A stretch of 32,000 nucleotides of DNA from an uncultured Pseudomonadota bacterium (GCA_964534555.1 CAZHRK010000005.1:1-32000); one strand, 5' to 3'. Shown: positions 1 through 30,890, numbered from the stretch's first letter. The notes: generated by a model from the letters alone, not told the origin. Numbers and translations: made by a program.

Positions 1-850
1 TTCGACCGCCTTTAGTCTTGAGCTTGTCGAAAGGTCAGGGCGAGCGGGGATAGAAGATATTACTTATCTAGTCAGCACGCATCTCACGGCAAGCGGGGGT
101 GGCATCAATCGGGGCGACTAGGGCCGGCGCGGGCAGGAACAGTGGGCTGCCAGGGTCGTTTTAGGCAGGAACAGGCCTAATATAAAAATGTATTTCAATA
201 TATTTATAAGCAAAACCTGTTCCTGTTTTGCAATTGCCCCCAAAGCCCTGTCTCCTGTTTAGGAATTACCCTAAATGCCCGCTCGATCAAACCCTTCGAC
301 AAGCTCAGGGCGAGCGGTAGGGGTAGTTATCTAAAAAATAATTATGGGTTACGTACTGCTTGATTGCAGCGTGTTATCCGGAGGTTCACGGAGGAGTCCT
401 CCGTGCGTTAGTGTAACTTCGCCGGTGCGATCACCTGGAGCATATATGCGAGGGTGATCGGTGGCTGGTCAAGCGAAGCCAGCGCTGGTGGTCTGGGTCC
501 AGGGTGGTGACCAAACACCATCCTGGACGTCTGCGGCCGACGCCGCACAAATAATTAATCATTATTATTAATAATTAAAATTATGATCATTACATAAAAT
601 ATGAGTTTAAAAATACGTATAGCCTAAACCTGTTCCTGTTTAGGAATTGCCCCAAAGGACCCGCTCGATCAAACCCGCAGGCACGCTCAGGGCGAGCGGG
701 GATAGAAGACATCACTTATGTAGTTGTACGCACACTCACGGCGAGCGGGGACAAGTTCATCACACTGAATAAAGAGTTATTAGGGTAGTCGCCAGACAGG
801 AACAGGTTTGGCATATCACATATAAAATTACATGCATTAATAAATTCAAA
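1..850. repeat. Intergenic mosaic-repeat block 1 (modules A, C, H, AT core; encloses S copy 1)
   Basis: A long A variant truncated by the window edge lies at 1..47, and full 39-bp A modules lie at 279..317 and 661..699. H hairpins: TTAGGCAGGAACAGGCCTAA 161..180, GCAAAACCTGTTCCTGTTTTGC 210..231, CCTAAACCTGTTCCTGTTTAGG 623..644, GCCAGACAGGAACAGGTTTGGC 791..812. Segment ~35..290 is homologous to ~7625..7880. Confidence 0.9.
323..600 (+). repeat. S element copy 1: multi-copy GC-rich structured element (candidate ncRNA or non-autonomous mobile element)
   Basis: GC-rich core 346..548 lies between AT-rich flanks. Helices readable directly: CACGGAGG 387..394 / CCTCCGTG 398..405; GATCACC 429..435 / GGTGATC 453..459; GCTGG 464..468 / CCAGC 479..483; GTCCAGGGTGGTG 497..509 / CACCATCCTGGAC 516..528; TGCGGC 532..537 / GCCGCA 542..547. 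Near-identical copies occur at 7321..7590 and 20560..20848 (minus strand). There is no ORF. Confidence 0.8.
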
Positions 851-1635: not shown

Positions 1636-2030
1636 ATATTTATAGCCTAAACCTGTTCCTGTTTAGGAATTGCCCCAAAGGACCCGCTCGATCAAACCCG
1701 CAGGCACGCTCAGGGCGAGCGGTAAGGGTAATCGCAAAACAGGAACAGGTTTTGCATTATAAATATATGGAATGCATTATTAATTATATGCGGGCGCGGG
1801 AGTTGCCCGCCCGACCCCAAAGGCCTGTTCCTGCCTAAGACGACCCCAAAGGTTCGCTCGATCAAACCCGCAGGCACGCTCAGGGCGAGCGGGATATAAA
1901 CAACCGCTTTTATAGGCAGCGGGTGGCTGAGGGCGAGCGGAGATAGAAGACATCACACTAAATATCACTTTTTTAGGGTAGTCGCCAGACAGGAACAGGT
2001 CTGGCATATCAACATATACATTCATTTAAA
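1636..2030. repeat. Intergenic mosaic-repeat block 2
   Basis: A modules at 1684..1722 and 1854..1892. D module (TATAAACAACCGCTTTTATAGGCAGCGGGTGGCTGAGGGCGAGCGG) ends at 1940. H hairpins of CCTAAAC, GCAAAAC, TAGGC and GCCAGAC stem types are present, with AT core ~1755..1790. Confidence 0.9.
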
Positions 2031-2168: not shown

Positions 2169-3527
2169 ATGAAGCGGCTTATTGATTACGCCTTGCTTGA
2201 ATGGAAGCAAAACCCTTCCCGTAAGCCACTTCTCGTGCGGGGTGCTCGTCAGGTAGGTAAAACATATGCGCTCAGGGTACTGGGAAAGACTTACGAATCA
2301 TTTGTTGAGGTTAACCTTGAGGAAAACGAGTATGCCAGGCAGATTATTGAGCGTGATTATGATGTTCAGCGTATTATTTTACAGTTGTCTGAATATCTGC
2401 AGCAGGAGATTACGCCAGGCAAAACACTTCTTTTTTTTGATGAAATTCAGGCTTCGCCTCGAGCGATTACTGCGTTGCGCTATTTTTACGAGCGGCTTCC
2501 GCAGCTGCACGTTGCCGCTGCTGGCTCATTATTAGAATTTGCTTTGGAGCAGGTTGGTGTGCCGGTGGGGCGTATTGAATCACGCTTTATGTACCCGTTA
2601 TCATTTGTTGAGTTTTTAGCTGCGCAGGGTAACTCCTTCTGGCTCAAGGCGCTGATTCAAGCACGTCCAGAAGCCCCGCTTTCTGCTGAGCTGCACGTAG
2701 CGCTTATGAATCAAGTCAGTGTGTATTTAGCTGTTGGTGGTATGCCCGAGGCAGTGTCGACATGGCTTGCACAAAAAACATCACGCGCTGTCATGCGCGT
2801 GCACGCGACGCTCCTTGAGTCGTATCAACAAGATTTTGGCAAGTATGCGGCTAAGCACCAAATGAAATATTTAGATCAGATATTTCAAAAAGCGCTTAGA
2901 CAGCTTGGCACCAAATTTATATTTGCGCATGTGGGTGACTATAAAAAGAGGGAGCTTGCGCCGGCTGTTGATCTGCTTGTAAAGGCGGGTGTTTTGCATA
3001 AGGTTTTTAAAACTTCAGCTCAGGGGGTGCCGCTTGGTGCAGAGGCTGAGCTTGATGATTTCAAAATTATTTTTTTAGACTGCGCGCTTGCGCAGGCCCA
3101 GCTTGGCCTTGACCCATCTGCGTGGCTTATTGGTTCTGATAAGCAATTTGCAAATCAAGGAGCATTAATCGAGGCTTTTGTTGGGCAAGAGCTTTTGGCC
3201 TACAGTAACTGGATGCGGCGCGAGCAGCTTTTTTATTGGCGCAGAGATATCAAGGGGAGTGATGCTGAGGTTGATTATGTTGTTCAGCATAATCAAAGCA
3301 TTGTTCCTATCGAAGTTAAAGCCGGTGCTAACAGACGTATTAAAAGTATGTATCTTTTTCTTGAGAGCAGGGCTGATGCTGCTCTTGCACCCGCGGGAAT
3401 ACGAATCTGGGGCGGAGGTTTTGAAAAAGAGCAGGTGCTGAGCTCGTATCCACTTTATGCAATTATTTGTTTTATGCTTGTGGTTAATCATGAGCTCCAA
3501 GAGGTTGTTGATCAGCTTATAAAATGA
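2169..3527 (+). CDS. AAA+ ATPase, AAA_14/DUF4143 family (COG1373-like)
   Basis: 452-aa ORF. Walker A is GARQVGKT and the Walker B-like motif is LLFFDEIQ. The C-terminal part, with AEVDYVV...IVPIEVKAG, is characteristic of the DUF4143 nuclease-like module. Confidence 0.85.
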   Translation: MKRLIDYALLEWKQNPSRKPLLVRGARQVGKTYALRVLGKTYESFVEVNLEENEYARQIIERDYDVQRIILQLSEYLQQEITPGKTLLFFDEIQASPRAITALRYFYERLPQLHVAAAGSLLEFALEQVGVPVGRIESRFMYPLSFVEFLAAQGNSFWLKALIQARPEAPLSAELHVALMNQVSVYLAVGGMPEAVSTWLAQKTSRAVMRVHATLLESYQQDFGKYAAKHQMKYLDQIFQKALRQLGTKFIFAHVGDYKKRELAPAVDLLVKAGVLHKVFKTSAQGVPLGAEAELDDFKIIFLDCALAQAQLGLDPSAWLIGSDKQFANQGALIEAFVGQELLAYSNWMRREQLFYWRRDIKGSDAEVDYVVQHNQSIVPIEVKAGANRRIKSMYLFLESRADAALAPAGIRIWGGGFEKEQVLSSYPLYAIICFMLVVNHELQEVVDQLIK

Positions 3528-3985
3528 TGTTATGCCAAACCTGTTCCGGTCTGGCGACTACCCTAAAAAACTGTTTGCTGTTTTGCAACGCCCCAAAGGG
3601 CCGCTCGATCAAACCCGCAGGCATGCTCAGGGCGAGCGGGTATATAAACAAACGCTTTTATAGGCAGTGGGTGCGCTCAGGGCGAGCGGTAAGGGTAATC
3701 GCAAAACAGGAACAGGTTTTGCATTATAAATATATGGAATTCATTATCAATTATATGCGGGCGCGGGAGTTGCCCGCCCGACCCCAAAAGCCTCTTCCAG
3801 CCTAAGACGACCCTAGAGGTCCGCTCGATCAGACCCTTCGACGAACTCAGGGCGAGCGGGGATAGAAGACATCACTTATCTAGTCAGCACGCATCTTACG
3901 GTGAGCGGTAGGGGTAGTCGCCAGACCGGAACAGGTTTGGCATATCATTATCATGAAATACATTTATTTTATAAGCGGGTGCCGC
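3528..3985. repeat. Intergenic mosaic-repeat block 3
   Basis: A modules at 3601..3639 and 3821..3859. D module ~3640..3689 and C module ~3860..3908. H hairpins are present (GCCAAAC..GTCTGGC at ~3535, GCAAAAC at ~3701, GCCAGACCGGAACAGGTTTGGC at ~3920), with AT core ~3725..3760. Confidence 0.9.
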
Positions 3986-5902: not shown

Positions 5903-5918
5903 ATTGCAAGGAGCATTT

Positions 5919-6423: not shown

Positions 6424-6829
6424 ATTAGAATAATTTTAAGTAATTATATTTGATAAGCCAAACCTGTATCCGGTCTGGCGACTACCCTAACAACCGATTA
6501 TTCAGTGTGATGATGCCAGCCCCCGCTCGCCCTGAGTTTATCGAAGGGTCTGATCGAGCGGCCTTTTTGAGCCGTCTTAGGCAGGAAACAGTGCGCCGCT
6601 AGGGCCGGGCGGGCAGGAACGGGCCCGCATATAATAAAGTATGAAATCCATATATTTATAAGCAAAACCTGTTCCTGTTTTGCGATTACCCTAGAAAACG
6701 AACATTTGTCTGATGATCTTGTCCCCGCTCGCCCTGACCTTTCGACAAGCTCAAGACTAAAGGCGGTCGAAGGGTTTGATCGAGCGGACCTTGTGTTAAT
6801 AAATCTATTACTCAAATTAATCATAATTT

Positions 6830-7095: not shown

Positions 7096-7240
7096 AATTA
7101 ATTATGTGAGTATCTTGCGTAGCACGCAGTTTTGAGCGCTGCGCGCCTGACGACCAAAAACGCTACGGTCTCAAAGCGCGCTACGCGCTGGCTTGTTCGA
7201 CACGGCTGTTTTGGCTCAACGGAAAATAATGATATAAGCA
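7095..7240 (+). repeat. Short GC-rich structured segment lying back-to-back with S copy 4
   Basis: It starts with AATTATGTGAGTATCTTGCGTAGC, which resembles the 5' end of the S elements (AATTATGGGTTACGTAC). GCGTAGC.CGC pairs with GCGCGCTACGC further on. It is seen once only in this window. Confidence 0.35.
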
Positions 7241-7320
7241 AAACCTGTTCCTGTTTAGGTATTGCCCCAAAGGTCCGCTCATGCAAACCCTTCGACGCGC
7301 TCAGGGCGAGCGGGGACAAA

Positions 7321-7590: not shown

Positions 7591-8018
7591 AAGAGGATCG
7601 CTCGATCAAACCCTTCGACAGGCTCAGGGCGAGCGGGGATATAAGACATCACTTATCTAATCAGCATTCACCTCAGGGCGAGCGGGGGTTGATACATCTG
7701 GGCGCTTATTAGGGCCGGCGCGGGGGTGGCATCAATCGGGGCAGTTGGGGCCGGGCGGACAGGAACAGTGGTCTGCCAGGGTCGTCTTAGGCAGGAACAG
7801 GCCTAATATAAAAATGTATTTCACTATATTTATAGCCTAAACCTGTTCCTGTTTTGCAATTTCCCCAAAGGTCCGCTCGATCAAACCATTCGACAAGCTC
7901 AGGGCGAGCGGTAGGGGTGATACATCTGGACCGCCAGGGTCGTCTTAGGCAGGAACGGGCCTAATTAAATAAAATATGAATTCCATATATCTTCAGCATC
8001 ACCAGGCAACGCAGAGTC

Positions 8019-8047: not shown

Positions 8048-8172
8048 AATTCTATTCATTTATTTTTGAGTGAGAGAGCTTTATGCAAAGTTTGTTTGCA
8101 GTCAAAAAGCCTTGTGGACGAGAAAATCGCTCCAGATCAAAAAAGAATAAGATCTTATTAAGGAGAGTGTGT

Positions 8173-11365: not shown

Positions 11366-12262
11366 AAGCTCCCCCGTAGGGTAGTCGCCAGAAATGAATT
11401 TATTTTATAATCATACGCAAAACCTGTTCCTGTTTTGCAATTGCCCCTGAAAATGAATTTTTATATTTTGATATGCGGGCCTGTTCCTGCCCGCGCCGAC
11501 CCTAGAGGCCCTGTCTTCTATTCCCGCGCCGGCCCCAACAACCGATTATTCAGTGTGATGTCTTCTATCACCGCACGCGGCTGAGCGCACCCACTACCTA
11601 TAAAAGCGTTTGTTTCTATCTCCGCTCGCCCTGAGCCTGTCGAAGGGTCTGATCGAGCGGACATTATAATGAATGTATATTTTGATATGCAAAACCTGTT
11701 CCTGTTTTGCAATTGCCCTTACCGCTCGCCGCTGAGCGCACCCACTGCCTATAAAAGCGTTTGTTTATATCCCGCTCGCCCTGAGCTTGTCGAAGGGTTT
11801 GATCGAGCGGACCTTTGGGGCAATTCCTAAACAGGAACAGGGCTTTTGGGGAAATTGCAAAACAGGAACAGGTTTTGCGTTATAAATATATGGAAATTAT
11901 ATTTTATTATATGCGGGCGCGGGAGTTGCCCGCCCGACCCTATTAGGCCCGTTCCTGCCTAAGACGACCCTGGCGGCCCCGATTGATGCCACCCCCGCTC
12001 GCCCTGAGCGTGCGTACAACTACATAAGGGATGTCTTCTATCCCCGCTCGCCCGTGAGCGTGCCTGCGGGTTTGATCGAGCGATCATTATAATGAATGTA
12101 TATTTGATATGCCAAACCTGTTCCGGTCTGGCGACTACCCTTACCGCTCGCCGCTGAGCGCACCCACTGCCTATGAAAGCTTTTGTTTCTATCTCCGCTC
12201 GCCCTGAGCTTGTCGAAGGGTCTGATCGAGCGGCCCTTGTGTTAATAAATCTATTACTCATA
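11366..12262. repeat. Intergenic mosaic-repeat block 5
   Basis: Reverse A modules at 11622..11660, 11772..11810, 12044..12083 (one extra base) and 12195..12233. D modules at ~11722..11778 and ~12144..12201. There are at least 7 H hairpins and an AT core at ~11880..11910. The end module CTTGTGTTAATAAATCTATTACTCA also occurs at ~6790..6815. Confidence 0.9.
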
Positions 12263-12311
12263 GCATATGCGCGCACCATCTTTTAATCGAAGCACCATGC
12301 AATGCAGAGTC

Positions 12312-12340
12312 TTGCAAAACCCCCCATTTCTTCTTATGGT
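12312..12340 (+). promoter_or_regulatory. Sigma70-like promoter candidate of the 12374 gene
   Basis: TTGCAA 12312..12317, a 17-nt spacer, then TATGGT 12335..12340. AAGGAG 12361..12366 precedes ATG 12374. The geometry matches 8019..8047. Confidence 0.5.
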
Positions 12341-12373
12341 AATGGTATTGTTTGTGTAAAAAGGAGATTGTGT

Positions 12374-15300
12374 ATGAACCAACATAAACACGTTCGTGTG
12401 GTGGCATCACCACAACGCAAAACACGCTTAGTTGCGCTCTTAGCATTAAGCTGCTGTTTTGTGCAGTCAGTGAGTGCGACGCTTGCAAGTGCCGCTCATA
12501 AAACGCCATTATCAAATGTTCGATTCGTTCCATCGCGTGAAACATCAGTCCTGTACGCAGGTGCCGCTGTAGCTCCTGCTGCAAATAAATCAGAAATGAT
12601 TGTGCGCGCGCAGCTTGGCACTGACGCAACCGGTGAGCCAGAAATTGAGCTGAATGAAATCGGTGCAAACATCGCTGGTGGACTTAAGGAAGTTACTCAC
12701 CTTGCGGTTTCACCAAACGGCACAGTGCTCAGCTTTGTAACGCCAACAGCTGCTGGTGATGAAGTTAAAAAAGTGCAGCAGCTGTACAGCCCTGCAGCGT
12801 CAGAAAAGCCAGCGGCAGAGATTTCAGCAGTGCTTAATGATGCTAATGGAAACGCTACAGAAGGTATTGTTGCGCTTGCGTCAAATGATACATATGCATT
12901 TGCAGCAGTGAGGGAGGCTGGTCAAGCATGGACTGCTGGTGATGAACGCGGTATTGCCGTTGTTAAGCATGGTGCAGCAGGTACAGCGCCAGATCAGAAG
13001 CAAGCTGGTGACCTTACCACAGCAGCAGCTGGCGCTCCTGATGATTCGCTCAAACTCTCTGTTAATTCCGCAGACAACCTTGTTGCATTTAAAGATCCTG
13101 CAGCTGCTGCAGTACTTGATTTTGATGCACAACTAACATCAAATAATGTTGCGATGCACTGGAACCCGTACAACGATCGTTTGTACGTTGGGCTTGGTGG
13201 CATTCGTCGTCCTGCTGGTCAAGAGGGTGGTGTGCTCGGCGTGACGGTTGGTCGTGTTGAGGCCGATGCGTTCAAATTAGCTGCTTTTGCACAAGCTAAT
13301 CCTGGCGTTATCCCAACTAAAGCTTTATTTTATGATGCTGCAGGGCAAAATAATGCGCTTGGTATTATCGGTTCATACCGTGATGCTGGATTTGGCGGTG
13401 GTACCGTAAGCGTTAATAAAATCGCATCACTCCACACAAGCACCGGAAAAGATTACCTCGTGGTTGCAAGCGAAGTTGCTGGTAGCGGTCCGCTCCAACC
13501 AACACAAAGTGGTGTGTATGCACTTCTGCTTAATAGTGACACTGCAGCTGCAGAAAAAACTGGATCAGTTGCTAAAGTTGCAAACTGGAAAACTCAACCA
13601 GCTGCCTATGGTGAGATGCCTCATGCAGCAGATGCAGCTGCGCGCATTCCACTCAGCCTTACGCAAGCGCAAATCGCTGATATTTTCTGCGAGGGCGACA
13701 GTGTGTATGTAGCTGCAAATGGCGCTAACCAAGCAGTTGCAGGGCTCTTTCAGTCACGCGCGCTGTTTGATGAAAACGGCTATATCTCAAGCTGGACATT
13801 GCCACAGCAAGTGCTTGCCGGACACGGTAAAGTTGTTGGTGCTGGTGTAGACGCCGCGACAGACACAATTATTGCAGTCGCGTCAGAAGGCCGTGATAGT
13901 GCAAAGAATGCAAACACTGTGTACGCAACACAATGGACAGCGGGTAAAGATAGTGCTCCTGGAGACTCTAACCTTCGCACAGTATTAGCTGAAAAATTCC
14001 CAGCAGAAGAGGGCGGCGTGCAGCAGCTGTTTATGTTTAGCGAAGCGACACCAGGATTTGCCGCTAATCGCTTAACGCTTGGTGTTGCGATTTCTGGCAG
14101 CAAGGTTGGACTTATTCAAGTTGCGCAGCGCGAAATCGGTGTTGGTGTAAACGCAGGCGTTGCACCAACGGTTGATTATGCTGTAGCAAAAGTATTTGTG
14201 TACGAAGATAACGAAGTTCTTAAGTCTATTGCGCCGCTTACTTCAGCATGCGTTGTTGACGGTACAAACGGCGGTTGGCTGTTTGTTGGTGGTGTGAACG
14301 GTGTTGCTGTGCTCAGCGGTAACGGCGGTGGTTTAGTTGCGAATACTAATGAGATTCCTGCTGGATCAGGCTGGAAGCTTTCGCTCGGTGCAAACGGCGG
14401 GCTTGCTGGCCTTGCTAACACTGCATCAGCTGCTCCAAATACAAAAGCTGGCTACCCTGGCCCACTCGATGCAACTGATGTTGCTGCAGCTGCAGCTGAT
14501 AACGCTGGCTACACCTGGAAGCAGCTTATTCCAGAAGCTGCTAATCTTTCTAACTTTGACAATGTACAAAAACTCATCGGCACAAACGGCCACAATGGTG
14601 ATGGTCAGCTCTTTATCTTGACTGATAAAGGTTTTTACCGCGTTGTGCCAACAGTTCCAACAATGGTCCTAAATACACCAAACCTTCATGAGGTTGATCT
14701 GCTCAGATTGCCTGCGTATGAAGTTGCGTATGGTCCTGCAAACCAAGTAACAGCTGCTGGATTTGCTGCTGGTGCTGCTGTTACCGCTCTTCAAGCACGC
14801 CTTGAAGACGCTGTACTGCTTGATGCGGTTGCGCTTGACTTCAAGCCAGGAACGGCGGCACCTGCAGCTGCTGCTCAGCAGACCTTTATCATATCATCAA
14901 CTAAAGGTATTGATCTGATTCAGATTACTGCACCACTACCTGCTGGAGCATTAACTGCCCTCCTGCCAGCTGAAAACTTTGAGACTGCTCCGCTTCTTGA
15001 TGGCAAGATTATTTTAAGCCTTGCGTACCAAAGCAGATCACGCAGCGGCGCAACACAAAAAGGTGAGCTGGTAGCCCTTGAAGCCGACTTTAGCCAAGAG
15101 CCATCAGTTGGTGTCTTGCACCGTCTCGCTGTTAATGCTGACGGTGGTTTTGCTGATATTCTTAAACTAGTTGCTGCTGCCCAGTATCCGCTTGCACAGG
15201 CGCGTGCTGCAGTGCTCCCGGTTGGTGCTGGGTATCTGCATACCCGTGGTAAGCACTTTGGTGATACAAACTATGCAGAAACACTTATGCCAAGCACACG

Positions 15301-15469
15301 TTTGAACCAAGCTCAAGATGGTAAGCTTGCTGACAGCGTTGTTGGCCAGTCGGTGGTAAGCTTGTTTGACCTTGACGCAGAAGCATCACTCGTTGGTAGA
15401 CCAGTGGTTGACCCAGCGACAGGAAACGTGATTGTTCCTGGTCAGTGGGGTGTTGTCGTTAAAGGTTAG
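12374..15469 (+). CDS. Large secreted Ala/Gly-rich protein, paralogue 2 (function unknown)
   Basis: Signal peptide MNQHKHVRVVASPQRKTRLVALLALSCCFVQSVSA. The 1031-aa protein carries HWNPYNDRLYVGL, GDSVYVAANG, GLFQSRALFDENGYISSWTLP, GWLFVGGVNGVAVL and the C-terminal PGQWGVVVKG, all collinear with the 8173 gene. Confidence 0.85.
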   Translation: MNQHKHVRVVASPQRKTRLVALLALSCCFVQSVSATLASAAHKTPLSNVRFVPSRETSVLYAGAAVAPAANKSEMIVRAQLGTDATGEPEIELNEIGANIAGGLKEVTHLAVSPNGTVLSFVTPTAAGDEVKKVQQLYSPAASEKPAAEISAVLNDANGNATEGIVALASNDTYAFAAVREAGQAWTAGDERGIAVVKHGAAGTAPDQKQAGDLTTAAAGAPDDSLKLSVNSADNLVAFKDPAAAAVLDFDAQLTSNNVAMHWNPYNDRLYVGLGGIRRPAGQEGGVLGVTVGRVEADAFKLAAFAQANPGVIPTKALFYDAAGQNNALGIIGSYRDAGFGGGTVSVNKIASLHTSTGKDYLVVASEVAGSGPLQPTQSGVYALLLNSDTAAAEKTGSVAKVANWKTQPAAYGEMPHAADAAARIPLSLTQAQIADIFCEGDSVYVAANGANQAVAGLFQSRALFDENGYISSWTLPQQVLAGHGKVVGAGVDAATDTIIAVASEGRDSAKNANTVYATQWTAGKDSAPGDSNLRTVLAEKFPAEEGGVQQLFMFSEATPGFAANRLTLGVAISGSKVGLIQVAQREIGVGVNAGVAPTVDYAVAKVFVYEDNEVLKSIAPLTSACVVDGTNGGWLFVGGVNGVAVLSGNGGGLVANTNEIPAGSGWKLSLGANGGLAGLANTASAAPNTKAGYPGPLDATDVAAAAADNAGYTWKQLIPEAANLSNFDNVQKLIGTNGHNGDGQLFILTDKGFYRVVPTVPTMVLNTPNLHEVDLLRLPAYEVAYGPANQVTAAGFAAGAAVTALQARLEDAVLLDAVALDFKPGTAAPAAAAQQTFIISSTKGIDLIQITAPLPAGALTALLPAENFETAPLLDGKIILSLAYQSRSRSGATQKGELVALEADFSQEPSVGVLHRLAVNADGGFADILKLVAAAQYPLAQARAAVLPVGAGYLHTRGKHFGDTNYAETLMPSTRLNQAQDGKLADSVVGQSVVSLFDLDAEASLVGRPVVDPATGNVIVPGQWGVVVKG

Positions 15470-15472
15470 TAA

Positions 15473-15790
15473 TTTTTGTAGGCCTGTTCCTGCCTACGAC
15501 GCCCCTGACCAAGGGGTTGGTGGTGTGGGAGCAGGGCCTTGTTAGGCAGGAACAGGCCCGCATATAATAAAATATGAATTCAAGAATATTTATAAGCAAA
15601 ACCTGTTCCTGTTTTGCGATTACCCTAGAGGCCCTGTCTTCGGTCTGGCGACTACCCTAAAAACCTCGTCCTGCCCGCGCCAGCCCCAGCGCCCCTGCTA
15701 CATACTTACCGCTCGCCCTGAGCTCGTCGAAGGGTTTGATCGAGCGGCTGACTGAACGGGGACTGTATCAGGATTAAGCGACTACCCTAA
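15473..15790. repeat. Intergenic mosaic-repeat block 6
   Basis: GTAGGCCTGTTCCTGCCTAC lies directly after the stop codon. Further hairpins are TTAGGCAGGAACAGGCCCGC (~15543) and GCAAAACCTGTTCCTGTTTTGC (~15597). Reverse A module at 15709..15747. Confidence 0.85.
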
Positions 15791-15819
15791 ACCGTGTATT
15801 TAATATGGAGTTAGTAATT

Positions 15820-17106
15820 ATGAACAAAAAATTATCATTCAAGCTTCTTGGCCTTGGTCTAACCATGGCCATAGCAACAGCAAACGCTTTTGTGCCAATA
15901 AACTTTTTTAAATCATATGATGTAAACCTTCGTCACCACGACGCACCAAAAGGCAATCCATTTCGCTTTGGCGTAAACCTTGAGTACGGCCAAGGTCACG
16001 ATGGACGCAACTGGGACAGCAAAAAAGCAAACATCCTGCAAACGTACGAAGCAACTCAAGCAGTTATTCCAATGCTCATCAACGGCAAAAACGCTGACAT
16101 CACAGCAGCATACAACCACTTGCTCGTTGGTGGCGCTGCGCTAGATGATGGTACGCGCGGACACGTTGCGCTCACAGGTAAATTAAGCGCGCTCGAGACT
16201 CAGCTGCACGCTCGCTACGAGCTCCCAATCAGCCAAATCCCTGGCAAGCTCTCTATCGGCCTTGCGCTCCCAGTGCGCCACGCAAACGTGAGTGATATTA
16301 CGTTTAAAGACAATACACAAACACTCGCACCTGCTGATGCGCCGATTCGTGATCGTTATACAACCAGCCTTGAAATGCTGAACACAAAAATTACTGAGCT
16401 TGGTGGCGCTGACCTTAAGCCATGGTCACGCACAGGACTTGGTGACCTTGTGTTTATGGTTGATTGGAATAACAACTACCCACAAGAAAAAGAAGGCCTT
16501 AAAAACGTTCAGCTGCACGCAAAAGTTGGTGTAAGCATGCCAACGGGCGTTGAGCGCGATATTAAACACGCATTCAGCATGCCGTTTGGTAATGATGGTG
16601 CATGGGGAATGCCATTTGGTCTTGGTCTTAACCTTGATTTTAATTATCATATTCGCCTTGGCGCAGAAGCACAATTTGATGTTGTGTTTGATGAAAGCAA
16701 AGAGCGCTACATGAAAACAGACACACGCCAAACAGCGTTCTTACTCCTGAACAAAGGCGAAGCAACGATGGATCATGGTCTGACCTGGCAGTTTAACCTT
16801 TTCTTACAGGGCTATCAGTTCTGGAAGGGGCTTTCACTCAAGTTTGGCTATGAGTACCTTAAGCATGATGATGATCGTCTGACACCAAAAGCAGATACTT
16901 TTAATGCATCAGTTGCAAATAGTGCTGCATGGCTTCATGAATATAATCTGCACAACTTGATTTTCCAAGGCAGCTGGGATGCTGCTGGTTGCTGCGAAGA
17001 TTGGGGCGTAAAACCACAGCTTGTTGTGTTTTATAAACTGCCTGTTGGTGGCAAAAATATCGCAGCGTTTCAGACCTTTGGTGGTCAGCTCGCGATCTGC
17101 TTCTAA
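15820..17106 (+). CDS. Outer-membrane beta-barrel protein, family 2
   Basis: GGAG lies 9 nt before ATG 15820. Signal peptide MNKKLSFKLLGLGLTMAIATANA. The body is rich in aromatic/Gly beta-strand patterns, and the C-terminus ...FGGQLAICF ends in Phe. Confidence 0.75.
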   Translation: MNKKLSFKLLGLGLTMAIATANAFVPINFFKSYDVNLRHHDAPKGNPFRFGVNLEYGQGHDGRNWDSKKANILQTYEATQAVIPMLINGKNADITAAYNHLLVGGAALDDGTRGHVALTGKLSALETQLHARYELPISQIPGKLSIGLALPVRHANVSDITFKDNTQTLAPADAPIRDRYTTSLEMLNTKITELGGADLKPWSRTGLGDLVFMVDWNNNYPQEKEGLKNVQLHAKVGVSMPTGVERDIKHAFSMPFGNDGAWGMPFGLGLNLDFNYHIRLGAEAQFDVVFDESKERYMKTDTRQTAFLLLNKGEATMDHGLTWQFNLFLQGYQFWKGLSLKFGYEYLKHDDDRLTPKADTFNASVANSAAWLHEYNLHNLIFQGSWDAAGCCEDWGVKPQLVVFYKLPVGGKNIAAFQTFGGQLAICF

Positions 17107-17133
17107 TCGCATACTCAATCACTTTTATACAAA

Positions 17134-17170
17134 GAGCCTGGACGGGGAACCGTTCGGGCTCTTTTTTATT
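17134..17170 (+). terminator. Rho-independent terminator of the 15820..17106 gene
   Basis: 12-bp stem GAGCCTGGACGG 17134..17145 / CCGTTCGGGCTC 17150..17161 (2 G-T pairs), loop GGAA, T6 at 17162..17167. Confidence 0.8.
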
Positions 17171-17420
17171 AGAATAATTTTAAGTAGTTATATTTTGATA
17201 AGCCAAACCTGTTCCGGTCTGGCGACTGCCCTAAGGGGTAATACCTAAACAGGAGACAGGGCTTTTGGGGCAATTGCAAAACAGGATACAGGTTTTGCTT
17301 ATCACTATGTTGAAATACATTTTTATAAGCGGGCCTGTTCCTGCCCGCCCGGCCCCAACTGCCCAGATTGATGCCCCTCACCGCTCGCCCTGAGCCTGTC
17401 GAAGGGTTTGATCGAGCGGA
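17166..17420. repeat. Intergenic mosaic-repeat block 7a
   Basis: TTATTAGAATAATTTTAAGTAGTTATATTTTGATAAGCCAAACCTGTTCCGGTCTGGCGACT is repeated at 6422..6485. H hairpins lie at ~17243, ~17275 and ~17330. Reverse A module at 17381..17419. Confidence 0.85.
17381..17419 (-). repeat. Module A (reverse orientation), 4 nt from the stop codon of the GIY-YIG gene
   Basis: CCGCTCGCCCTGAGCCTGTCGAAGGGTTTGATCGAGCGG, the inverted partner of 17738..17776. Confidence 0.95.
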
Positions 17421-17423
17421 CCT

Positions 17424-17711
17424 TTATATCTGATTGCTTAATTTGACAAGAGCGTCCCAATCGCCAGCGATAAGAGCTTCTTTTTTATTGCGGGACCATT
17501 TTTTTAAACGACGTTCAATTTTAAAAGCATCATCACGCGTTGCAAATGTTTGCATCCAAACGAGTTTAACAGGTAAGCGATTTGCAGTGAAACAGTGTGG
17601 CCAGTAAGCAGCATCGTGTTGTGCTAAGCGTGATCTAATATCATCGGTATGACCGATATAAAATGAATCATCAGCACATTTGAGAATGTATACAACAAAA
17701 TTTATCATCAA
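17424..17711 (-). CDS. Small GIY-YIG nuclease-domain protein (COG2827/URI-type)
   Basis: 95-aa ORF. FVVYILKCADDSFYIGHTDDIRSRLAQH contains the two GIY-YIG signature triplets (VYI ... YIG) and the conserved Arg. Its size and layout match stand-alone GIY-YIG proteins. Confidence 0.85.
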   Translation of the reverse strand: MMINFVVYILKCADDSFYIGHTDDIRSRLAQHDAAYWPHCFTANRLPVKLVWMQTFATRDDAFKIERRLKKWSRNKKEALIAGDWDALVKLSNQI

Positions 17712-17737
17712 AGTATTGAGTGAATTTTATGTATGGA

Positions 17738-17776
17738 CCGCTCGATCAGACCCTTCGACAAGCTCAGGGCGAGCGG
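17738..17776 (+). repeat. Module A (forward orientation), 26 nt upstream of the GIY-YIG start codon
   Basis: CCGCTCGATCAGACCCTTCGACAAGCTCAGGGCGAGCGG. It is the only forward-oriented A copy located to the right of position 8000. Confidence 0.95.
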
Positions 17777-18245
17777 GACTAAATATACTGTTTTTAGTTT
17801 CCATAAAAGTTATTATTTGAATCGTGCTGATTATAACAAGATACTATAGCTTTGATAATTTTCCAGCTGGGTAGATACATCATTTCTATTTTGCGAATAG
17901 CCTAACAAAGCGATTATTGAGTGTGATGATCTTGTCACCGCTCGCCCTGAGCTTGTCGAAGGGTTTGATCGAGCGGTCATTATAATGAATGTATATTTTT
18001 ATATGCGGGCCTGTTCCTGCCCGCGCCGGCCCTAACAACCGATTATTCAGTGTGATGTCTTCTATCCCCGCTTGCCCTGAGCGTGCCTGCGGGTCTGATC
18101 GAGCGGTCCTCTGGGGTAATACCTAAACAGGAACAGGTTTAGGGTATAAATATATGGAATTCATATTTTATTTAATTAGGCCTGTTCCTGCCTAAGACGA
18201 CCCTAGAGGCCACTATCCCTCCCTGCGGGTCTGATCGAGCGGTCA
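17777..18245. repeat. Intergenic mosaic-repeat block 7b (after a ~160-bp unique AT-rich stretch)
   Basis: Reverse A modules at 17938..17976 and 18068..18106 (degenerate), and a half A at ~18221..18242. H hairpins are GCGGGCCTGTTCCTGCCCGC (~18005), CCTAAACAGGAACAGGTTTAGG (~18120) and TAGGCCTGTTCCTGCCTAAG (~18178). AT core ~18145..18175. Confidence 0.85.
17830..17858 (-). promoter_or_regulatory. Sigma70-like promoter candidate reading toward module A and the GIY-YIG gene
   Basis: On the minus strand: TTATCA (17858..17853), a 17-nt spacer, then TATAAT (17835..17830). Confidence 0.4.
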
Positions 18246-20164: not shown

Positions 20165-20965
20165 CTACCGATGGTTGCACATAAAGTGTGCGTGCTGACT
20201 AGATAAGTGGTGTGTTTTATCACCGCGCGACCTGAGCGTGCCCACTGTTTATAAAAGCGTTTTTTTATATCCCCGCTCGCCCTGACCTTTCGACAAGCTC
20301 AAGACTAAAGGCGGTCGAAGGGTCTGATCGAGCGGACCTTTGGGGCAATACCTAAACAGGAGACAGGTTTTTAGGGTAGTTGCCAGACCGGAACAGGTCC
20401 TCTAGGGCAATTGCAAAACAGGAACAGGTTTTGCTTATAAATATATTGAAATACATTTTTATATTAGGCCTGTTCCTGCCTAAGACGACCCTAAGCGCCC
20501 AGATGTATCAACCCCCGCTCGCCCTGAGCATGCCTGCGGGTCTGATCGAGCGGTCATCTTTCTTACATTAAATTTTATGTAATGATCTAATTTTAATTAT
20601 TAAAAATAATGATTAATTAATTGTGCGGCGTCGGCCGCAGACGACCAGGATGGTGTTTGGTCACCACCCTGGACCCAGACCACCAGCGCTGGCATCGCTG
20701 GACCAGCCACCGATCACCCTCGCATATATGCTCCAGGTGATCGCACCGGCGAAGTTACACTAACGCACGGAGGGCACCTCCGTGAACCTCCGCATAACAC
20801 GCTGCGATTCAGCTGTAGCTAAATAATAATTATTTTTTAGATAACTACCCCTACCGCTCGCCCTGAGCATGCCTGCGGGTCTGATCGAGCGGACCTTTGG
20901 GGCAATACCTAAACAGGAACAGGTTTAGGGTATAAATATAGTGAATTCATATTTTATATTAGGCG
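20165..20965. repeat. Intergenic mosaic-repeat block 8 (encloses S copy 3)
   Basis: Reverse A modules at 20273..20335 (63-bp long variant), 20515..20553 and 20854..20892. The H/AT composite at 20336..20495 is homologous to 28333..28495. Confidence 0.9.
20560..20848 (-). repeat. S element copy 3 (minus strand)
   Basis: Its reverse complement aligns along the full length with 323..600 and 7321..7590. It is flanked on both sides by A modules in the same relative orientation as for copies 1 and 2. Confidence 0.8.
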
Positions 20966-20983
20966 CAAGACTCCTCTAGGAAT

Positions 20984-21394
20984 TCAAATCGCTCCTAGTT
21001 TTGTTTTACGTGCAGATTTTTTTAATGTTTCTGCAAGTTCCGCTTTTGAAACTATTCCCTCTGCAACATTTGTTACGAGTTGGAAAGCACTTTTATTTGA
21101 AGCTTTAAATACGTAATTATTATTTTCAAGAAAAACAAGGGCAACAGTAAATCCTGTGCGCTTGTTGCCATCAATAAAGGGATGATTTTTAATAATATGA
21201 AACATGTACGCTGCTGCTTGATCAAAAATAGTCTTATGCAGGAGCTGTCCAAACATTCGAGCTTCTGCTTGATGAAGAGCAGAGCGAAGCAACCCTTCAT
21301 CTCTTATGCCATGAATACCACCAAAAGCTGCAATCATGTGCTCATGAATCATGAGCACACTTTCATAATCGAGAAAAATCGGAGTTTGCTTCAT
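20984..21394 (-). CDS. doc: Fic/Doc family toxin (death-on-curing type)
   Basis: 136-aa ORF. The motif HPFIDGNKRTG matches the Doc signature HxFx(D/N)(A/G)NKR. The N-terminus GIRDEGLLRSAL is typical of the family. It overlaps the upstream antitoxin ORF by 4 nt. Confidence 0.9.
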   Translation of the reverse strand: MKQTPIFLDYESVLMIHEHMIAAFGGIHGIRDEGLLRSALHQAEARMFGQLLHKTIFDQAAAYMFHIIKNHPFIDGNKRTGFTVALVFLENNNYVFKASNKSAFQLVTNVAEGIVSKAELAETLKKSARKTKLGAI

Positions 21395-21618: not shown

Positions 21619-21740
21619 ACGGAAGTTCTTTCATGAAAAAATGAACGCTTAAACATTGTATAATCGTAACATGTTTTTTTTCGCAAAATACATTTTTTGC
21701 AATTTCCCCAAAAGCCCGGTTCCTGTTTAGGAATTTCCCC

Positions 21741-21794
21741 AGCTGAATATAAATTTTTTGATGCTATTTCAAGCCAGTGTTTATGATTTTGCAT
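21741..21794 (-). pseudogene. Remnant (first ~18 codons) of a HEPN gene, truncated by a repeat unit
   Basis: The minus-strand ATG at 21794 overlaps the MNT stop by 14 nt, the same geometry as 1224 versus 1237. The remnant MQNHKHWLEIASKNLYSA aligns with MLDHELWISLAYEDFLTA. From ~21740 the sequence becomes the repeat GGGGAAATTCCTAAACAGGAACCGGGCTTTTGGGGAAATTGCAAAA. Confidence 0.6.
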
Positions 21795-22095
21795 AAATCA
21801 CCTTGCCGCTCTTAATTATCTTGGCAATAAGTGATGATGGCTCTTCTGCTCTAGTCTGGAGCTCATCTGTTGTATACACCAAAAGATCTACAGGTTCACC
21901 AAAGCCTATCAATGAACGATAGCCTTTTTTTGATCTAACAAGAATACGTTCTGTCGAGGCATCAAGTTCAACTAAAATATCATAATCACTTGAGTGTGAA
22001 ATATCTCCCCATACGCGTGAACCAAAAAGATAAATACGCTCGGGATTATATGCCTCAGTCAATCGATCAATAAGATCACGTAGTTTAGCATCCAT
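21781..22095 (-). CDS. Nucleotidyltransferase-domain protein (MNT type), paralogue of 923..1237, now without an intact HEPN partner
   Basis: 104-aa ORF. MDAKLRDLIDRLTEAYNPERIYLFGSRVWG...SSDYDILVEL is collinear with and highly similar to the 923 gene. Confidence 0.85.
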   Translation of the reverse strand: MDAKLRDLIDRLTEAYNPERIYLFGSRVWGDISHSSDYDILVELDASTERILVRSKKGYRSLIGFGEPVDLLVYTTDELQTRAEEPSSLIAKIIKSGKVIYAKS

Positions 22096-22164: not shown

Positions 22165-22800
22165 GATGGGTTGTCGCCAGAGCGGCCCGCTCGCCGTGAG
22201 CGTGCCTGCGGGCCTGATCGAGCGGACCGCCAGGGTCGTCTTAGGCAGGAAACAGTGCGCCGCCAGGGCCGGGCGGGCAACTCCCGCGCCCGCATATAAA
22301 AATGTATTTCAACATAGTGATAAACAAAACCTGTTCCTGTTTTGCAATTGCCCCTGAAAATGAATTTTTATATTTTGATAAGCCAAACCTGTTCCGGTCT
22401 GGCGACTACCCCTACCACTCACCCTGAGCGCACTCGCTAGCTATAAATGCATTTGTTTCTATCACCGCTCGCCCTGAGCCTGCCTGCGGGTCTGATCGAG
22501 CGGACCTTTGGGGCAATACCTAAACAGGAACAGGTTTAGGGTATAAATATAGTGAAATATATTATTAATAAATTATATGCGGGCCTGTTCCTGCCCGCGC
22601 CGGCCCTAAGCGCCCAGATGTATCAACCCCCGCTCGCCCTGAGCGTGCCTATGGGTCTGATCGAGCGGACCGCTAGGGTCGTCTTAGGCAGGAACGGGCC
22701 TAATTAAATAAAATATGAATTCAATATAGTTATAAGCAAAACCTGTTCCTGTTTTGCGATTACCCTGGCAGCCCACCGCCCCTGTCTTCCTGCCCGCGCA
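22165..22800. repeat. Intergenic mosaic-repeat block 9
   Basis: Reverse A modules at 22187..22225, 22465..22503 and 22630..22668. There are at least 7 H hairpins, with AT cores at ~22290..22325, ~22545..22575 and ~22700..22735. Confidence 0.9.
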
Positions 22801-22829: not shown

Positions 22830-22860
22830 AAAAAAAGCGGGGGCATGATCGCCCCCGCTT
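22830..22860 (-). terminator. Rho-independent terminator of the 22898..25627 gene
   Basis: On the minus strand: AGCGGGGGC-GATCAT-GCCCCCGCT (9-bp stem, plus-strand 22836..22859) followed by T7. Confidence 0.8.
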
Positions 22861-28071: not shown

Positions 28072-28329
28072 GAAGATATTCCTTTTTGCCTACGTGTTAA
28101 TAGTGCCTGCGTTATGTGTTGATGACATGGTACACACTGCACGCCACTTCATGAATAAAAAGTTTACATCTTGTATGCAACATTTGTGTTAAATCATTGT
28201 AAAAAAAGATTTCATTTGCATACGATTGGTGCTGAATTTAAGCGGTTAATTTTGGTAAGACTAAGACTCTATTTGGGTTAGTAAAAAATTGATCCTTTTG
28301 CGCATCGTGCTAAGAATGTTTGATACAGC

Positions 28330-28510
28330 GCCTCTGGGGTAATCGCAAAACAGGAGACAGGTTTTTAGGGTAGTTGCCAGACCGGAACAGGTCCTCTAGG
28401 GAAATTCCTAAACAGGAACAGGTTTAGGTTATAAATATATGGAAATACATTTTTACATTAGGCCTGTTCCTGCCTAAGACGACCCTGGCGGCCTCGATGT
28501 TCGTGCCTAA
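28330..28510. repeat. Intergenic mosaic-repeat block 10 (H units and AT core only)
   Basis: Homologous to 20336..20495. Hairpin CCTAAACAGGAACAGGTTTAGG lies at 28407..28428, and TAGGCCTGTTCCTGCCTAAG at ~28462. Confidence 0.85.
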
Positions 28511-28628
28511 GACGACCGCAGCGCAGCAGTTTCTGTTTATCACTTACCAAAATTGATACTTTGTTCTGAGCAGCACAGCGCGTTTTGTGGCTCGTGACTT
28601 TGGTTTATACACGTTATTGGTGCATACA

Positions 28629-30539: not shown

Positions 30540-30890
30540 GATCGAAGTCATTTAGGGTAATACCTAAAACAGGAACAGGTTTAGGTATTAAATATATTGA
30601 AATACATTATTAATAAATTATATGCGGGCGCGAGAGTTGCCCGCGCCGGCCCTATCAAACCAATATATTTGTTTTATGACGATGTCTTCTATCCCCGCTC
30701 GCCCTGAGCCTGTCGAAGGGTCTGATCGAGCGGTCATTATAATGAATGTATATTTGATATGCCAAACCTGTATCCGGTCTGGCGACTACCCCTACCGCTC
30801 GCCCTGAGCACACCCACTGCCTATAAAAGCTTTTGTTTATATTCCCGCTCGCCCTGAGCGTGCCTGCGGGTTTGATCGAGCGGACCGTCT
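30540..30890. repeat. Intergenic mosaic-repeat block 11
   Basis: Reverse A modules at 30695..30733 and 30845..30883, with a D module at ~30795..30851. H hairpins lie at ~30553 and ~30765, with an AT core at ~30585..30620. Confidence 0.9.

Follow-up and report, generated by a model that had tools for sequence, protein, structure and literature searches.

Few non-coding elements of bacteria are as abundant as the repetitive extragenic palindrome (REP)-type repeats. To our knowledge, how proteins recognise them is understood for two systems only, the GTAG REPs with their REP-associated tyrosine transposases (RAYTs) and the NTS repeats with SsnA. The tagged REPs are stem-loops of 20-40 bp with an unpaired GTAG or CGTC tag at one end, which form sub-families with complementary stems, tolerate G-T pairs, associate as tail-out heterodimers with conserved spacers of 20-100 bp, and also cluster and associate with other repeats, as in the Neisseria mosaics (Di Nocera et al. 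2013, PMC3733652). In the REPIN-RAYT systems, recognition of the hairpin as single-stranded DNA (ssDNA) is the accepted mechanism (PMC3116915, PMC3479197), and RAYT binding needs a bulged stem and GTAG at the stem foot (PMC3479197). The Ssn ssDNA nucleases are encoded in a repeat-gene-repeat layout, NTS-ssnA-NTS (PMC11893778). Here we describe a family of hairpins sharing the loop AGGAACAG in the first 32 kb of contig CAZHRK010000005.1 of assembly GCA_964534555.1 (hereafter designated the window; about 70% coding). The family is a new, lineage-specific variant of REP-type repeats and of bacterial interspersed mosaic elements (BIMEs), set in an intergenic mosaic that resembles BIMEs and the Neisseria intergenic mosaic elements (NIMEs), in a bacterium of the Dependentiae (TM6).

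The two strands of the window together contain 39 copies of AGGAACAG (expectation, 0.73; maximum in 100 shuffles, 3), two of which, at 8645 and 25552, are chance matches that lie within open reading frames (ORFs) and have no stem. A hairpin search with an obligatory stem and one edit allowed in the loop gave 43 units, and inclusion of the forms with a 9-nt loop raised the number to 45 intact hairpins (19 on the + strand and 26 on the − strand), with stems of 6-7 bp and loops of 8 or 9 nt belonging to the AGGAACAG family. Together with five E′ units (stem GCGGGC/GCCCGC, loop AACTC(C/T)CGC) and 19 arm-less (truncated) units, in which the tail, 5′ arm, and loop are present and the 3′ arm is gone, the total comes to about 69, in agreement with the figure of about 60 that a first-pass annotation of this DNA had reached by eye. 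All units are located in non-coding DNA and occur at a density of about 2 per kb of total sequence; a complete unit is 28-32 nt long. Moreover, a self-comparison of the window revealed about 7.2 kb of repeated sequence, about 6.7 kb of which is intergenic, corresponding to about 70% of the non-coding DNA. The hairpin repeat family is real and strongly non-random.

Each unit has the layout 5′-GGG-N5-(6-7-nt arm)-(A/C)GGAAC(A/G)G-(complementary arm); the next 25-40 nt are AT-rich. The five stem versions and the class-specific GGG-N5 tails described in the first-pass annotation were all recovered, every one of them at least 5 times in the window:

Class A: tail GGG(C/T)AAT(T/C); arms GCAAAAC / GTTTTGC
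Class B: tail GGGCAAT(T/A); arms CCTAAAC / GTTTAGG
Class C: tail GGGTAGTC; arms GCCAGAC / GTTTGGC; one G-T pair; loop mostly CGGAACAG
Class D: tail GGGTCGTC; arms TTAGGC / GCCTAA
Class E: tail GGG(C/T)CGGC; arms GCGGGC / GCCCGC

All class tails can be aligned as GGG-YMRKY, and, since those of classes C and D (GGGTAGTC vs GGGTCGTC) are one base apart, all tails are regarded as versions of one tag. The class C tail reads GTAG plus 2 nt, so that GTAG, which occurs solely in this class, stands 2 nt off the stem, and the class D tail places CGTC at the stem foot. The stems are perfect or contain a single G-T pair, and when folded as ssDNA, each class adopts the expected hairpin at −3.9 to −7.7 kcal/mol. 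The coordinates given earlier for two of the hairpins are exact (20413..20434, GCAAAAC-AGGAACAG-GTTTTGC; 28407..28428, CCTAAAC-AGGAACAG-GTTTAGG), and the G-T wobble of the GCCAGAC/GTTTGGC class is present in 8 of 9 units, all of one lineage. The loop, previously called invariant, is nearly constant but not strictly so: CGGAACAG is found in most class C units, AGGAACGG in four class D or E units, 9-nt forms (A/C)GGATACAG in a few others, and AACTCCCGC in E′ units, and the loops of arm-less units are far more variable.

Covariation was examined in an ungapped alignment of 42 units, all of them window copies, in which 92.3% of the stem cells were paired, as compared with 70.8% after shuffling, and none of 500 shuffles reached 92.3%. 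Changes on both sides were observed for six of the seven stem pairs, and sliding the partner by one column lowered the pairing to 48-53%. The cell counts are inflated by copying, and the changes were accordingly recounted as events on a minimal tree of the six stem types, on which compensatory double changes number at least 10, one further change leads to a wobble, and none is fixed without compensation; GTAGGC/GCCTAC at 15477-15505 is a compensatory double change private to a single copy. Within classes, identity was 94-100% in the arms and loop, 80-99% in the tails, and 49-84% in the AT-rich flanks. Furthermore, the loop was canonical or class-typical in 41 of 45 intact units versus 6 of 19 arm-less units (Fisher p = 3e-6, with copies partly non-independent). 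Thus, both the pairing and the loop sequence are maintained, and the loop is kept only where the hairpin is intact; selection or homogenisation preserves the pairing. The earlier description of a hairpin family whose sub-family stems differ by compensatory changes around a near-constant loop is therefore well founded.

The units of the window, together with the gene and modules of the GIY-YIG cassette dealt with below, are as follows (coordinates, strand, feature):

121..142 (+): truncated class E (GGGCCGGC-GCGGGC-AGGAACAG), then TGGGCTGCCA and a class D unit
153..181 (+): intact class D (GGGTCGT-TTTAGGC-AGGAACAG-GCCTAA)
210..240 (−): intact class A (GGGGCAATT-GCAAAAC-AGGAACAG-GTTTTGC); doublet with 153-181
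248..271 (−): truncated class B, loop AGGAGACAG
623..653 (−): intact class B (CCTAAAC/GTTTAGG)
783..812 (+): intact class C (GGGTAGTC-GCCAGAC-AGGAACAG-GTTTGGC, G-T wobble), solo
1646..1676 (−): intact class B
1726..1755 (+): intact class A, tail GGGTAATC
1790..1817 (−): E′ unit GGGTCGG-GCGGGC-AACTCCCGC-GCCCGC (class E stem); doublet with 1726-1755
1825..1847 (−): truncated class D (tail, TTAGGC, and AGGAACAG), then GCCTTTG and the next unit
1976..2005 (+): intact class C, stem fully Watson-Crick (GTCTGGC)
3534..3563 (−): intact class C, loop CGGAACAG; begins 6 nt past the stop codon of gene 2169..3527
3571..3594 (−): truncated class A, loop AGCAAACAG
3693..3722 (+): intact class A
3757..3784 (−): E′ unit, loop AACTCCCGC
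3792..3813 (−): truncated class D, loop TGGAAGAG
3911..3941 (+): intact class C, loop CGGAACAG
6457..6487 (−): intact class C, 9-nt loop CGGATACAG
6577..6591 (+): truncated class D, loop AGGAAACAG
6602..6629 (+): intact class E, loop AGGAACGG
6662..6691 (−): intact class A; doublet with 6602-6629
7238..7268 (−): chimeric, 5′ arm class B CCTAAAC, 3′ arm class A GTTTTGC
7747..7768 (+): truncated class E (GCGGAC and AGGAACAG)
7779..7807 (+): intact class D
7836..7866 (−): chimeric, 5′ arm class A, 3′ arm class B; doublet with 7779-7807
7937..7965 (+): intact class D, loop AGGAACGG; half doublet beside the promoter region of gene 8083
11417..11447 (−): intact class A; missing at the orthologous site of the close relative (L115)
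11474..11502 (−): intact class E; L115 also has a class E unit at this site
11511..11536 (−): truncated class E, loop ATAGAAGACAG
11689..11718 (−): intact class A; flanks same as at 12111, 18004, and 30761
11817..11840 (+): truncated class B; opens a 31-nt tandem array
11848..11878 (+): intact class A
11913..11940 (−): E′ unit
11942..11970 (−): intact class D, loop AGGAACGG
12111..12140 (−): intact class C, loop CGGAACAG
15477..15505 (−): single-copy class D variant GTAGGC/GCCTAC
15534..15562 (+): chimeric, 5′ arm class D-like, 3′ arm class E
15596..15625 (−): intact class A
15634..15657 (−): truncated class C, loop CGAAGACAG
15665..15687 (−): truncated class E, loop AGGACGAG
17202..17231 (−): intact class C; just past the terminator 17131-17164
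17235..17259 (+): truncated class B, loop AGGAGACAG
17267..17298 (+): intact class A, 9-nt loop AGGATACAG
17328..17356 (−): intact class E; separated by 25 nt from the GIY-YIG cassette, on the outer side of its left G module
17381..17422 (+): G module; forms, as left arm, the 42-nt inverted repeat around the GIY-YIG gene together with 17735..17776
17424..17711 (−): gene for a 95-aa single-domain GIY-YIG nuclease (predicted, Ssn-like)
17735..17776 (−): G module, right arm of the inverted repeat around the GIY-YIG gene
18004..18032 (−): intact class E
18113..18143 (+): intact class B
18175..18203 (−): intact class D; doublet with 18113-18143
20342..20366 (+): truncated class B, loop AGGAGACAG; outer unit of the 20336..20495 composite
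20374..20396 (+): truncated class C, loop CGGAACAG
20405..20434 (+): intact class A; contains the hairpin 20413..20434
20435..20462 (no strand): AT-rich doublet core (TTATAAATATATTGAAATACATTTTTATA)
20463..20491 (−): intact class D; right end of the doublet with 20405..20434
20899..20929 (+): intact class B
21716..21740 (−): decayed truncated class B, loop AGGAACCGG
22233..22255 (+): truncated class D, loop AGGAAACAG
22266..22293 (+): E′ unit
22324..22354 (−): intact class A, G-T closing pair (GTTTTGT)
22382..22412 (−): intact class C, loop CGGAACAG
22510..22540 (+): intact class B
22578..22606 (−): intact class E; doublet with 22510-22540
22676..22704 (+): intact class D, loop AGGAACGG
22736..22765 (−): intact class A; doublet with 22676-22704
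22782..22797 (−): truncated class E, loop AGGAAGACAG
28336..28360 (+): truncated class A, loop AGGAGACAG; the homologous place 20342-20366 is class B
28368..28390 (+): truncated class C
28399..28428 (+): intact class B; contains the hairpin 28407..28428
28457..28485 (−): intact class D
30555..30585 (+): class B-like, 5′ arm shifted (CTAAAAC/GTTTAGG)
30624..30652 (−): E′ unit, loop AACTCTCGC
30761..30792 (−): intact class C, 9-nt loop CGGATACAG

The tagged REPs are the closest description of this family. Common to both are the short stem-loop, hundreds of intergenic copies, sub-families with complementary stem residues, G-T pairs, head-to-head heterodimers with conserved spacers, clusters, and an association with other repeats; the GTAG plus dinucleotide of class C is as in the GTAG-1/2 families, and class D resembles the CGTC families in having CGTC at its stem foot and a stem whose first two pairs are A/T (PMC3733652). 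In the known families, however, the tag is constant and the loops are mostly of 2-5 nt, whereas here the asymmetric 8-nt loop is constant and the tag varies; in addition, the phylum Dependentiae is not among the listed hosts (PMC3733652), and the unit density is extreme. As in the REPIN-RAYT systems, paired inverted hairpins with a short spacer are the commonest arrangement and solo units look like remnants (PMC3116915, PMC3479197), but the doublets here join two stem classes, the stems are free of bulges, and most classes lack GTAG at the stem foot. The E. coli BIMEs and Neisseria NIMEs are likewise strain-variable intergenic mosaics of at least two hairpin types in alternating orientation with a few linker motifs; their module sequences are unrelated to the present ones, and the present mosaic also contains arm-less units stacked head to tail at 31-nt intervals and a structured element about 340 nt long. 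An invariant loop containing a nick site, on stems that vary by compensatory changes, is also characteristic of the Rep origins of HUH enzymes in geminiviruses, circoviruses, and rolling-circle plasmids. These are, however, single origins on small replicons as opposed to dispersed chromosomal repeats, and no Rep-like gene was seen in the window; the analogy is one of logic only.

The arrangement of the units points to frequent exchange among them. Two composites, 20336..20495 and 28333..28495, are collinear over about 155 nt and show 11 differences, 9 of which fall within the tails and arms of two units. From the former composite to the latter, the intact inner unit changes from class A to class B and the arm-less outer unit from class B to class A, with its tail switched along. 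The difference between 20413 and 28407 had been read as a compensatory mutation in place; instead, one existing cassette type has replaced another and, because the arm-less unit, which is free of selection for pairing, has switched too, the switches are ascribed to conversion or recombination between pre-existing cassettes. Similarly, the same constant flanks (cgagcggTAA ... ATATCAAA(A)TATACATTCATTATAATG-CCGCTCGATC) hold class A at 11689, class C at 12111, class C with a 9-nt loop at 30761, and class E at 18004. Recombination between unit types, already suspected from chimeric stems, was verified at 7238..7268 and 7836..7866, and a third chimera was found at 15534..15562. In all three, the tail and 5′ arm of one class are joined to the 3′ arm and flank of another, which locates the crossover in the loop; a fourth odd unit, at 30555-30585, has a shifted arm. 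Head-to-tail stacks have a 31-nt period, and the 3′ arm is present solely in the innermost unit; in the outer units, similarity ends 0-4 nt past ...ACAG, directly after which the 5′ extension of the next unit follows (CCTTTG, CCTCTA, CCGCCA, or TTTTTTA, then GGG). A CRISPR array was considered for the 31-nt tandem period and rejected, as there are no spacers and no cas domains among the ORFs of the window.

There are 15 inverted doublets, with tails outward and an AT-rich core of about 29-33 nt. They always combine class A or B with class D, E, or E′, while class C is mostly solo. The likeness to REPIN doublets proposed in the first-pass annotation thus holds, including the AT-rich core, but the constant combination of two different classes is unlike canonical REPINs. 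Besides these 15 head-to-head heterodimers, tail-to-tail pairs occur around G modules, together with a few head-to-tail pairs. The doublet ends show a YR|GGG...CCC|YR step. When a whole doublet is folded, its two loops form 10-11 bp with each other and GGG is paired to CCC, giving −11.8 kcal/mol versus about −9.6 kcal/mol as two local hairpins. In the class alignments, no consistent pattern was found for pairing of the tail with the base past the 3′ arm or for covariation of guide and cleavage site of the IS200/IS605 type.

The mosaic contains a second kind of module, designated the G module, of the form CCGCTCGCCCTGAGC-N8-GGGTYTGATCGAGCGG, of which there are about 28 in the window, 16 of them fused by a 6-7-nt linker to the 5′ GGG tail of a AGGAACAG unit. 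Examples lie at 17381-17422, 18061-18106, 20508-20553, and 22458-22503; inner variants are TTGTCGAA and GTGCCTGC, and a long variant is found at 20274-20335 and 6726-6790. The related K and T modules have the same CCGCTCGCC(C/G)TGAG head, and the G module, if translated, would yield the spurious peptide FDKLRASG. Two inverted G modules of 42 nt, which are 93% complementary and separated by 312 nt, enclose a 95-aa ORF at 17424..17711. The search for a repeat-flanked nuclease that the first-pass annotation had suggested thus led to a candidate, though one flanked by G modules rather than by AGGAACAG hairpins. The ORF consists of one GIY-YIG domain (PF01541, 2e-16, residues 5-77) and is 55-63% identical to 92-110-aa GIY-YIG proteins of sphingomonads and of a Babeliales metagenome-assembled genome (MAG); a PDB search returned UPF0213 structures only. 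Homologous cassettes were found in three other genomes:

L246 9930-10490, Babeliales MAG: GIY-YIG 55% identical to that of the window, inverted arms
L251 2874-3389, high-G+C genome: GIY-YIG 58% identical, 54-nt arms, 98% complementary
L252 2940-3340, Erythrobacter: GIY-YIG 56% identical, inverted arms

All of these arms, including those of the window (17381-17776), carry CGCTC-NN-CCTGAG with TCGAAGG after it, and the unit of gene and arms is IS-like or "REPtron-like". In the Babeliales MAG, the cassette lies between 85-nt direct repeats that are 98% identical (9685-9769 and 10482-10566), the first of which includes the upstream gene's 3′ end, an arrangement reminiscent of insertion accompanied by a long duplication. 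The layout of the window cassette resembles that of Ssn and NTS in the single-domain GIY-YIG protein of about 95 aa (about 94 aa in Ssn) bracketed by inverted, many-copy hairpin repeats, in the design of a hairpin with a 5′ tag, and in the enrichment of Ssn in host-associated bacteria (PMC11893778). It differs in that the gene-bracketing repeats are the G modules (CGCTC-NN-CCTGAGC...TCGAAGG), not the AGGAACAG hairpins. That one conserved end motif surrounds small GIY-YIG genes of Dependentiae, of Erythrobacter, and of a high-G+C genome points to an Ssn-like clade with a new specificity, which may matter for the development of ssDNA tools.

Homologues of the outer-membrane-protein (OMP)-like paralogues of the window are named Candidatus Babeliales, Candidatus Dependentiae, or candidate division TM6, which assigns the host lineage, as far as protein homology can tell, to the Dependentiae (TM6/Babeliales); other genes, encoding ankyrin-repeat, HEPN/MNT, Fic/Doc, and orphan surface proteins, fit an intracellular lifestyle. 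The family extends the range of dense REP/BIME-like mosaics to this obligately host-associated phylum. A close relative, represented by contigs L115 and L250 of run SRR13076594, carries the same hairpin family, with about 83% nucleotide identity to the window at the OMP locus of L250. The mosaic differs at orthologous sites: downstream of gene 8083-11331, the window has an extra class A unit and truncated class C unit, and the arrays upstream of both compared genes differ. The mosaics thus turn over fast between close relatives, beside fast-evolving surface-protein genes. No such hairpins were found in the more distant Babeliales loci L246, L247, and L249; scans of JGI metagenomes (GGG-N8-AAACAGGAACAGGTTT) and of IMG/VR (AAACAGGAACAGGTTT) gave single chance matches only, a blastn search of 20200-20990 against plasmids gave no match, and a literature search for the repeat sequences returned nothing relevant. 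By these comparisons, the family is young and lineage-specific, with fast turnover. Logan contigs matching window proteins were 2-3.6 kb long and ended inside repeats.

We favour, as slightly better than an even chance, the explanation that the hairpins act as ssDNA or as extruded cruciforms, the loop and tag of which are recognised in trans by a nuclease or recombinase of Ssn or RAYT type that is specific for hairpins, followed by heavy conversion. The unit would then consist of a G-rich 5′ tag (GGG-YMRKY), a 6-7-bp stem needing only to pair, and the 8-nt loop (A/C)GGAAC(A/G)G. AT-rich flanks ease melting and cruciform extrusion, and the AT-rich tract beside every hairpin fits such a role. 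Presumably, such an enzyme would recognise the sequence of the loop and tag and the shape of the stem, and would then cut nearby; cutting would seed the copying, stacking, and exchange of units, and frequent recombination or conversion among copies would shuffle the cassettes and generate chimeras. Candidate enzymes are an Ssn-type GIY-YIG nuclease (e.g., 17424..17711) and a RAYT-type HUH tyrosine enzyme elsewhere in the genome. Five stem versions, several tags, and one loop in one small genome amount to a natural experiment on whether a hairpin-specific enzyme reads the loop. Several observations weigh against this explanation. The characterised REP and NTS systems conserve the sequence of tag and stem, not a large loop, so that loop-specific recognition would be a departure from them, and the GTAG/CGTC tag is missing from classes A (GTAA/GCAA), B (GCAA), and E (GCCG/CGGC). 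The identity of hairpins within classes may stem from recent copying and conversion instead of selection. No consistent target-site duplication was present at the ends of the 15 doublets, no precise empty site was found, and the only gain seen relative to the close relative is a replacement, in which a 59-nt block with a class A unit stands for 36 nt. As to the enzyme, no Y1/HUH gene (no Y1_Tnp match) occurs among the ORFs of the window; the GIY-YIG gene is bracketed by G modules, with the nearest AGGAACAG hairpin 25 nt outside the cassette, and the homologous loci L246, L251, and L252 have G-like modules and no AGGAACAG hairpins, for which reason this GIY-YIG protein is not assigned as the reader of the AGGAACAG hairpin. 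For the AGGAACAG hairpin, the repeat-gene-repeat layout offers no more than a candidate enzyme class. Finally, the published SRM pattern HGTCWYN(0-2)YYVSBRHN(0-5)WNVSBRGN(0-2)RNCYNB had no match in the window or in L115, L246, L247, L249, L250, L251, and L252, while the NTS consensus used as a control was matched; the G module thus represents another motif, which plausibly serves a distinct Ssn-like clade as its cognate repeat.

A more specific version of the ssDNA-enzyme explanation, which we regard as rather unlikely, makes the window's own Ssn-like GIY-YIG protein (17424..17711) the reader of both G modules and AGGAACAG hairpins, the unit being a fused G module, linker, and hairpin. It draws on the 16 of about 28 G modules that run via ACCTTTG, ACCTCTA, or ACCGCCA into the GGG tail of a hairpin, on the class E unit just outside the cassette, and on the (A/C)GTC that immediately precedes the stem in the tails of classes C and D; in Neisseria, NTS cleavage is controlled by three bases upstream of the palindrome and occurs a few nucleotides further 5′, a position that corresponds here to the GGG boundary, where units join. 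On the other hand, the GTC tag is missing from classes A, B, and E, the small G-module hairpin (GCTC-GCCCT-GAGC) is unlike the AGGAACAG hairpin, and the bracketing of the gene by G modules alone, the three hairpin-free cassettes elsewhere, and the unmatched SRM pattern also speak against it. Alternatively, the 30-nt cassette of GGG tag and hairpin might itself be the unit of mobility or conversion, with a loop-recognising nuclease nicking the boundary of loop and 3′ arm (...ACAG|G) and strands being exchanged between units; specificity would reside in the loop as in HUH origins, and not in the 5′ tag as in REP-RAYT or NTS-Ssn, and the system would be coupled in the mosaic to a separate Ssn-like GIY-YIG clade with ends outside the published Ssn motif. 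Such a system would account for the recurrent ...ACAG|G break in the 19 arm-less units and for stacking at a 31-nt period, as well as for chimeric stems and the swapping of cassettes within constant flanks, although we judge it unlikely.

The same features also suit a process with no dedicated enzyme, namely slippage, template switching at hairpins, and ectopic gene conversion among hundreds of copies, with mismatch repair in transient hairpins keeping the pairing. Cassettes are exchanged within constant flanks, even an arm-less unit has switched class, three or four chimeric stems have their crossover in the loop, tandem arrays have a 31-nt period with junctions 0-4 nt past ...ACAG at short microhomologies, and gains resemble replacements without target duplications. 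Such a process is nevertheless quite improbable in our view, as it leaves unexplained the constancy of an asymmetric 8-nt loop across classes whose stems and tails have mostly diverged, the decay of the loop upon loss of the 3′ arm, and the abundance in this lineage only. Action as RNA, with the DNA repeats being merely the genes of RNA stem-loops whose AGGA-containing loop binds a protein (e.g., a CsrA-like GGA-loop binder) or which protect or process mRNA 3′ ends, is given equally little credence or slightly less. CAGGAAC is similar to the CsrB repeats CAGGA(U/A/C)G, class C tolerates a G-T (G-U) wobble in the AGGAACAG sense, several units stand right after stop codons (3534, 15477), and many REPs have been argued to act as RNA (PMC3733652). 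The wobble, however, which had been offered as a hint that the hairpin is read in the AGGAACAG sense, belongs to a single inherited class, and in 6 of 9 cases the unit next downstream of a gene is antisense to it; no line of evidence favours reading as RNA in that sense. G-T is also the most stable mismatch in DNA, where the wobble is equally tolerable. Moreover, units lie on both strands, mostly as inverted doublets, several arrays start only past an intrinsic terminator (17131-17164, ~22835-22860), and some are placed between divergent genes (28072-28586); promoter- or terminator-like sites are not in excess, the genes have separate terminators, so that the hairpins are not gene terminators, and Rfam gave no match at gathering thresholds and two weak, irrelevant matches only at E<=1. 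Least probable, and by our estimate very improbable, are doublets that represent miniature inverted-repeat transposable elements (MITEs) of a DDE-type insertion sequence, with GGG...CAGGAACAGG as a terminal inverted repeat bound as duplex and the palindromes incidental. The doublet indeed prefers the fold across both halves, its conserved blocks behave as a split inverted repeat, and MITE-like elements with AGGAACAGG repeats in their ends exist in unrelated genomes (L066, L083, and Labilithrix). Those look-alikes, however, were retrieved by a search pattern that itself required this 10-mer; binding of the duplex by a transposase would not account for the at least 10 arm-compensating changes, only a YR step in place of a target-site duplication is seen at the 15 doublets, no transposase gene is present among the ORFs of the window, and solo units and head-to-tail stacks are common.

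The contig scan with the doublet pattern CAGGAACAGG-N38-56-CCTGTTCCTG gave 113 matches, which are due to chance or unrelated repeats. Among them, the alphaproteobacterial groundwater MAG nzgw531 (L066, L083), with MITE-like ends of tandem AGGAACAGGTTTC 13-mers, was rejected as a product of the search pattern and not a relative, as was a Labilithrix MAG with (GGAACA)n ends. The nzgw531 elements are intergenic inverted repeats of about 70-100 bp (L066 5262-5365; L083 1335-1405 and 5118-5222), one copy of which reads CCTAAACAGGAACAGGTTTC like class B here; this likeness is probably convergent, the search having demanded that 10-mer.

Other features of the window accompany the arrays. An X repeat of about 340 nt occurs at 247-600 (+), 7233-7638 (+), and 20513-20934 (−), with a diverged copy at 6800-7010 (−); it combines a GC-rich core of about 230 nt, which is highly self-complementary, with an AT-rich tail, and its copies are 87-92% identical. 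Its consensus fold (−68 kcal/mol) includes three compensated pairs, all from the diverged copy, and has no Rfam match; the repeat could be a further mobile module or a structured RNA of a new kind. At 2059-2150, upstream of an AAA_14/DUF4143 ATPase gene, 2.8 copies of a 33-nt sequence (ATTACATAAACTAACCCCCACTTTTAGACACA) stand in tandem; this repeat is unrelated to the hairpins. A tRNA scan of the window found none. Genes 8083-11331 and 12302-15469 encode paralogous Ala/Gly-rich secreted proteins of about 1050 aa with no Pfam match. The orthologue in the relative (L115 361-3552) is only 55% identical, with about 100 nt upstream and the downstream terminator nearly identical, which suggests, from the sequence comparison, a fast-evolving or recombining surface antigen inside the repeat mosaic. 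The OMP-like paralogues (4270-5826, 28587-30518, and 15805-17106) are specific to Dependentiae/Babeliales, none of their 170 homologues has a Pfam domain, and each is flanked by repeat arrays. Small gene pairs of toxin-antitoxin-like or mobile-associated character lie among the arrays at 923-1634, 5904-6381, 20984-21394, 21781-22095, and 31264-32000, comprising MNT/HEPN, DUF4160/DUF2442, Fic/Doc, a second MNT, and mobile mystery protein A; a further ORF runs from 31741 to the end of the window.

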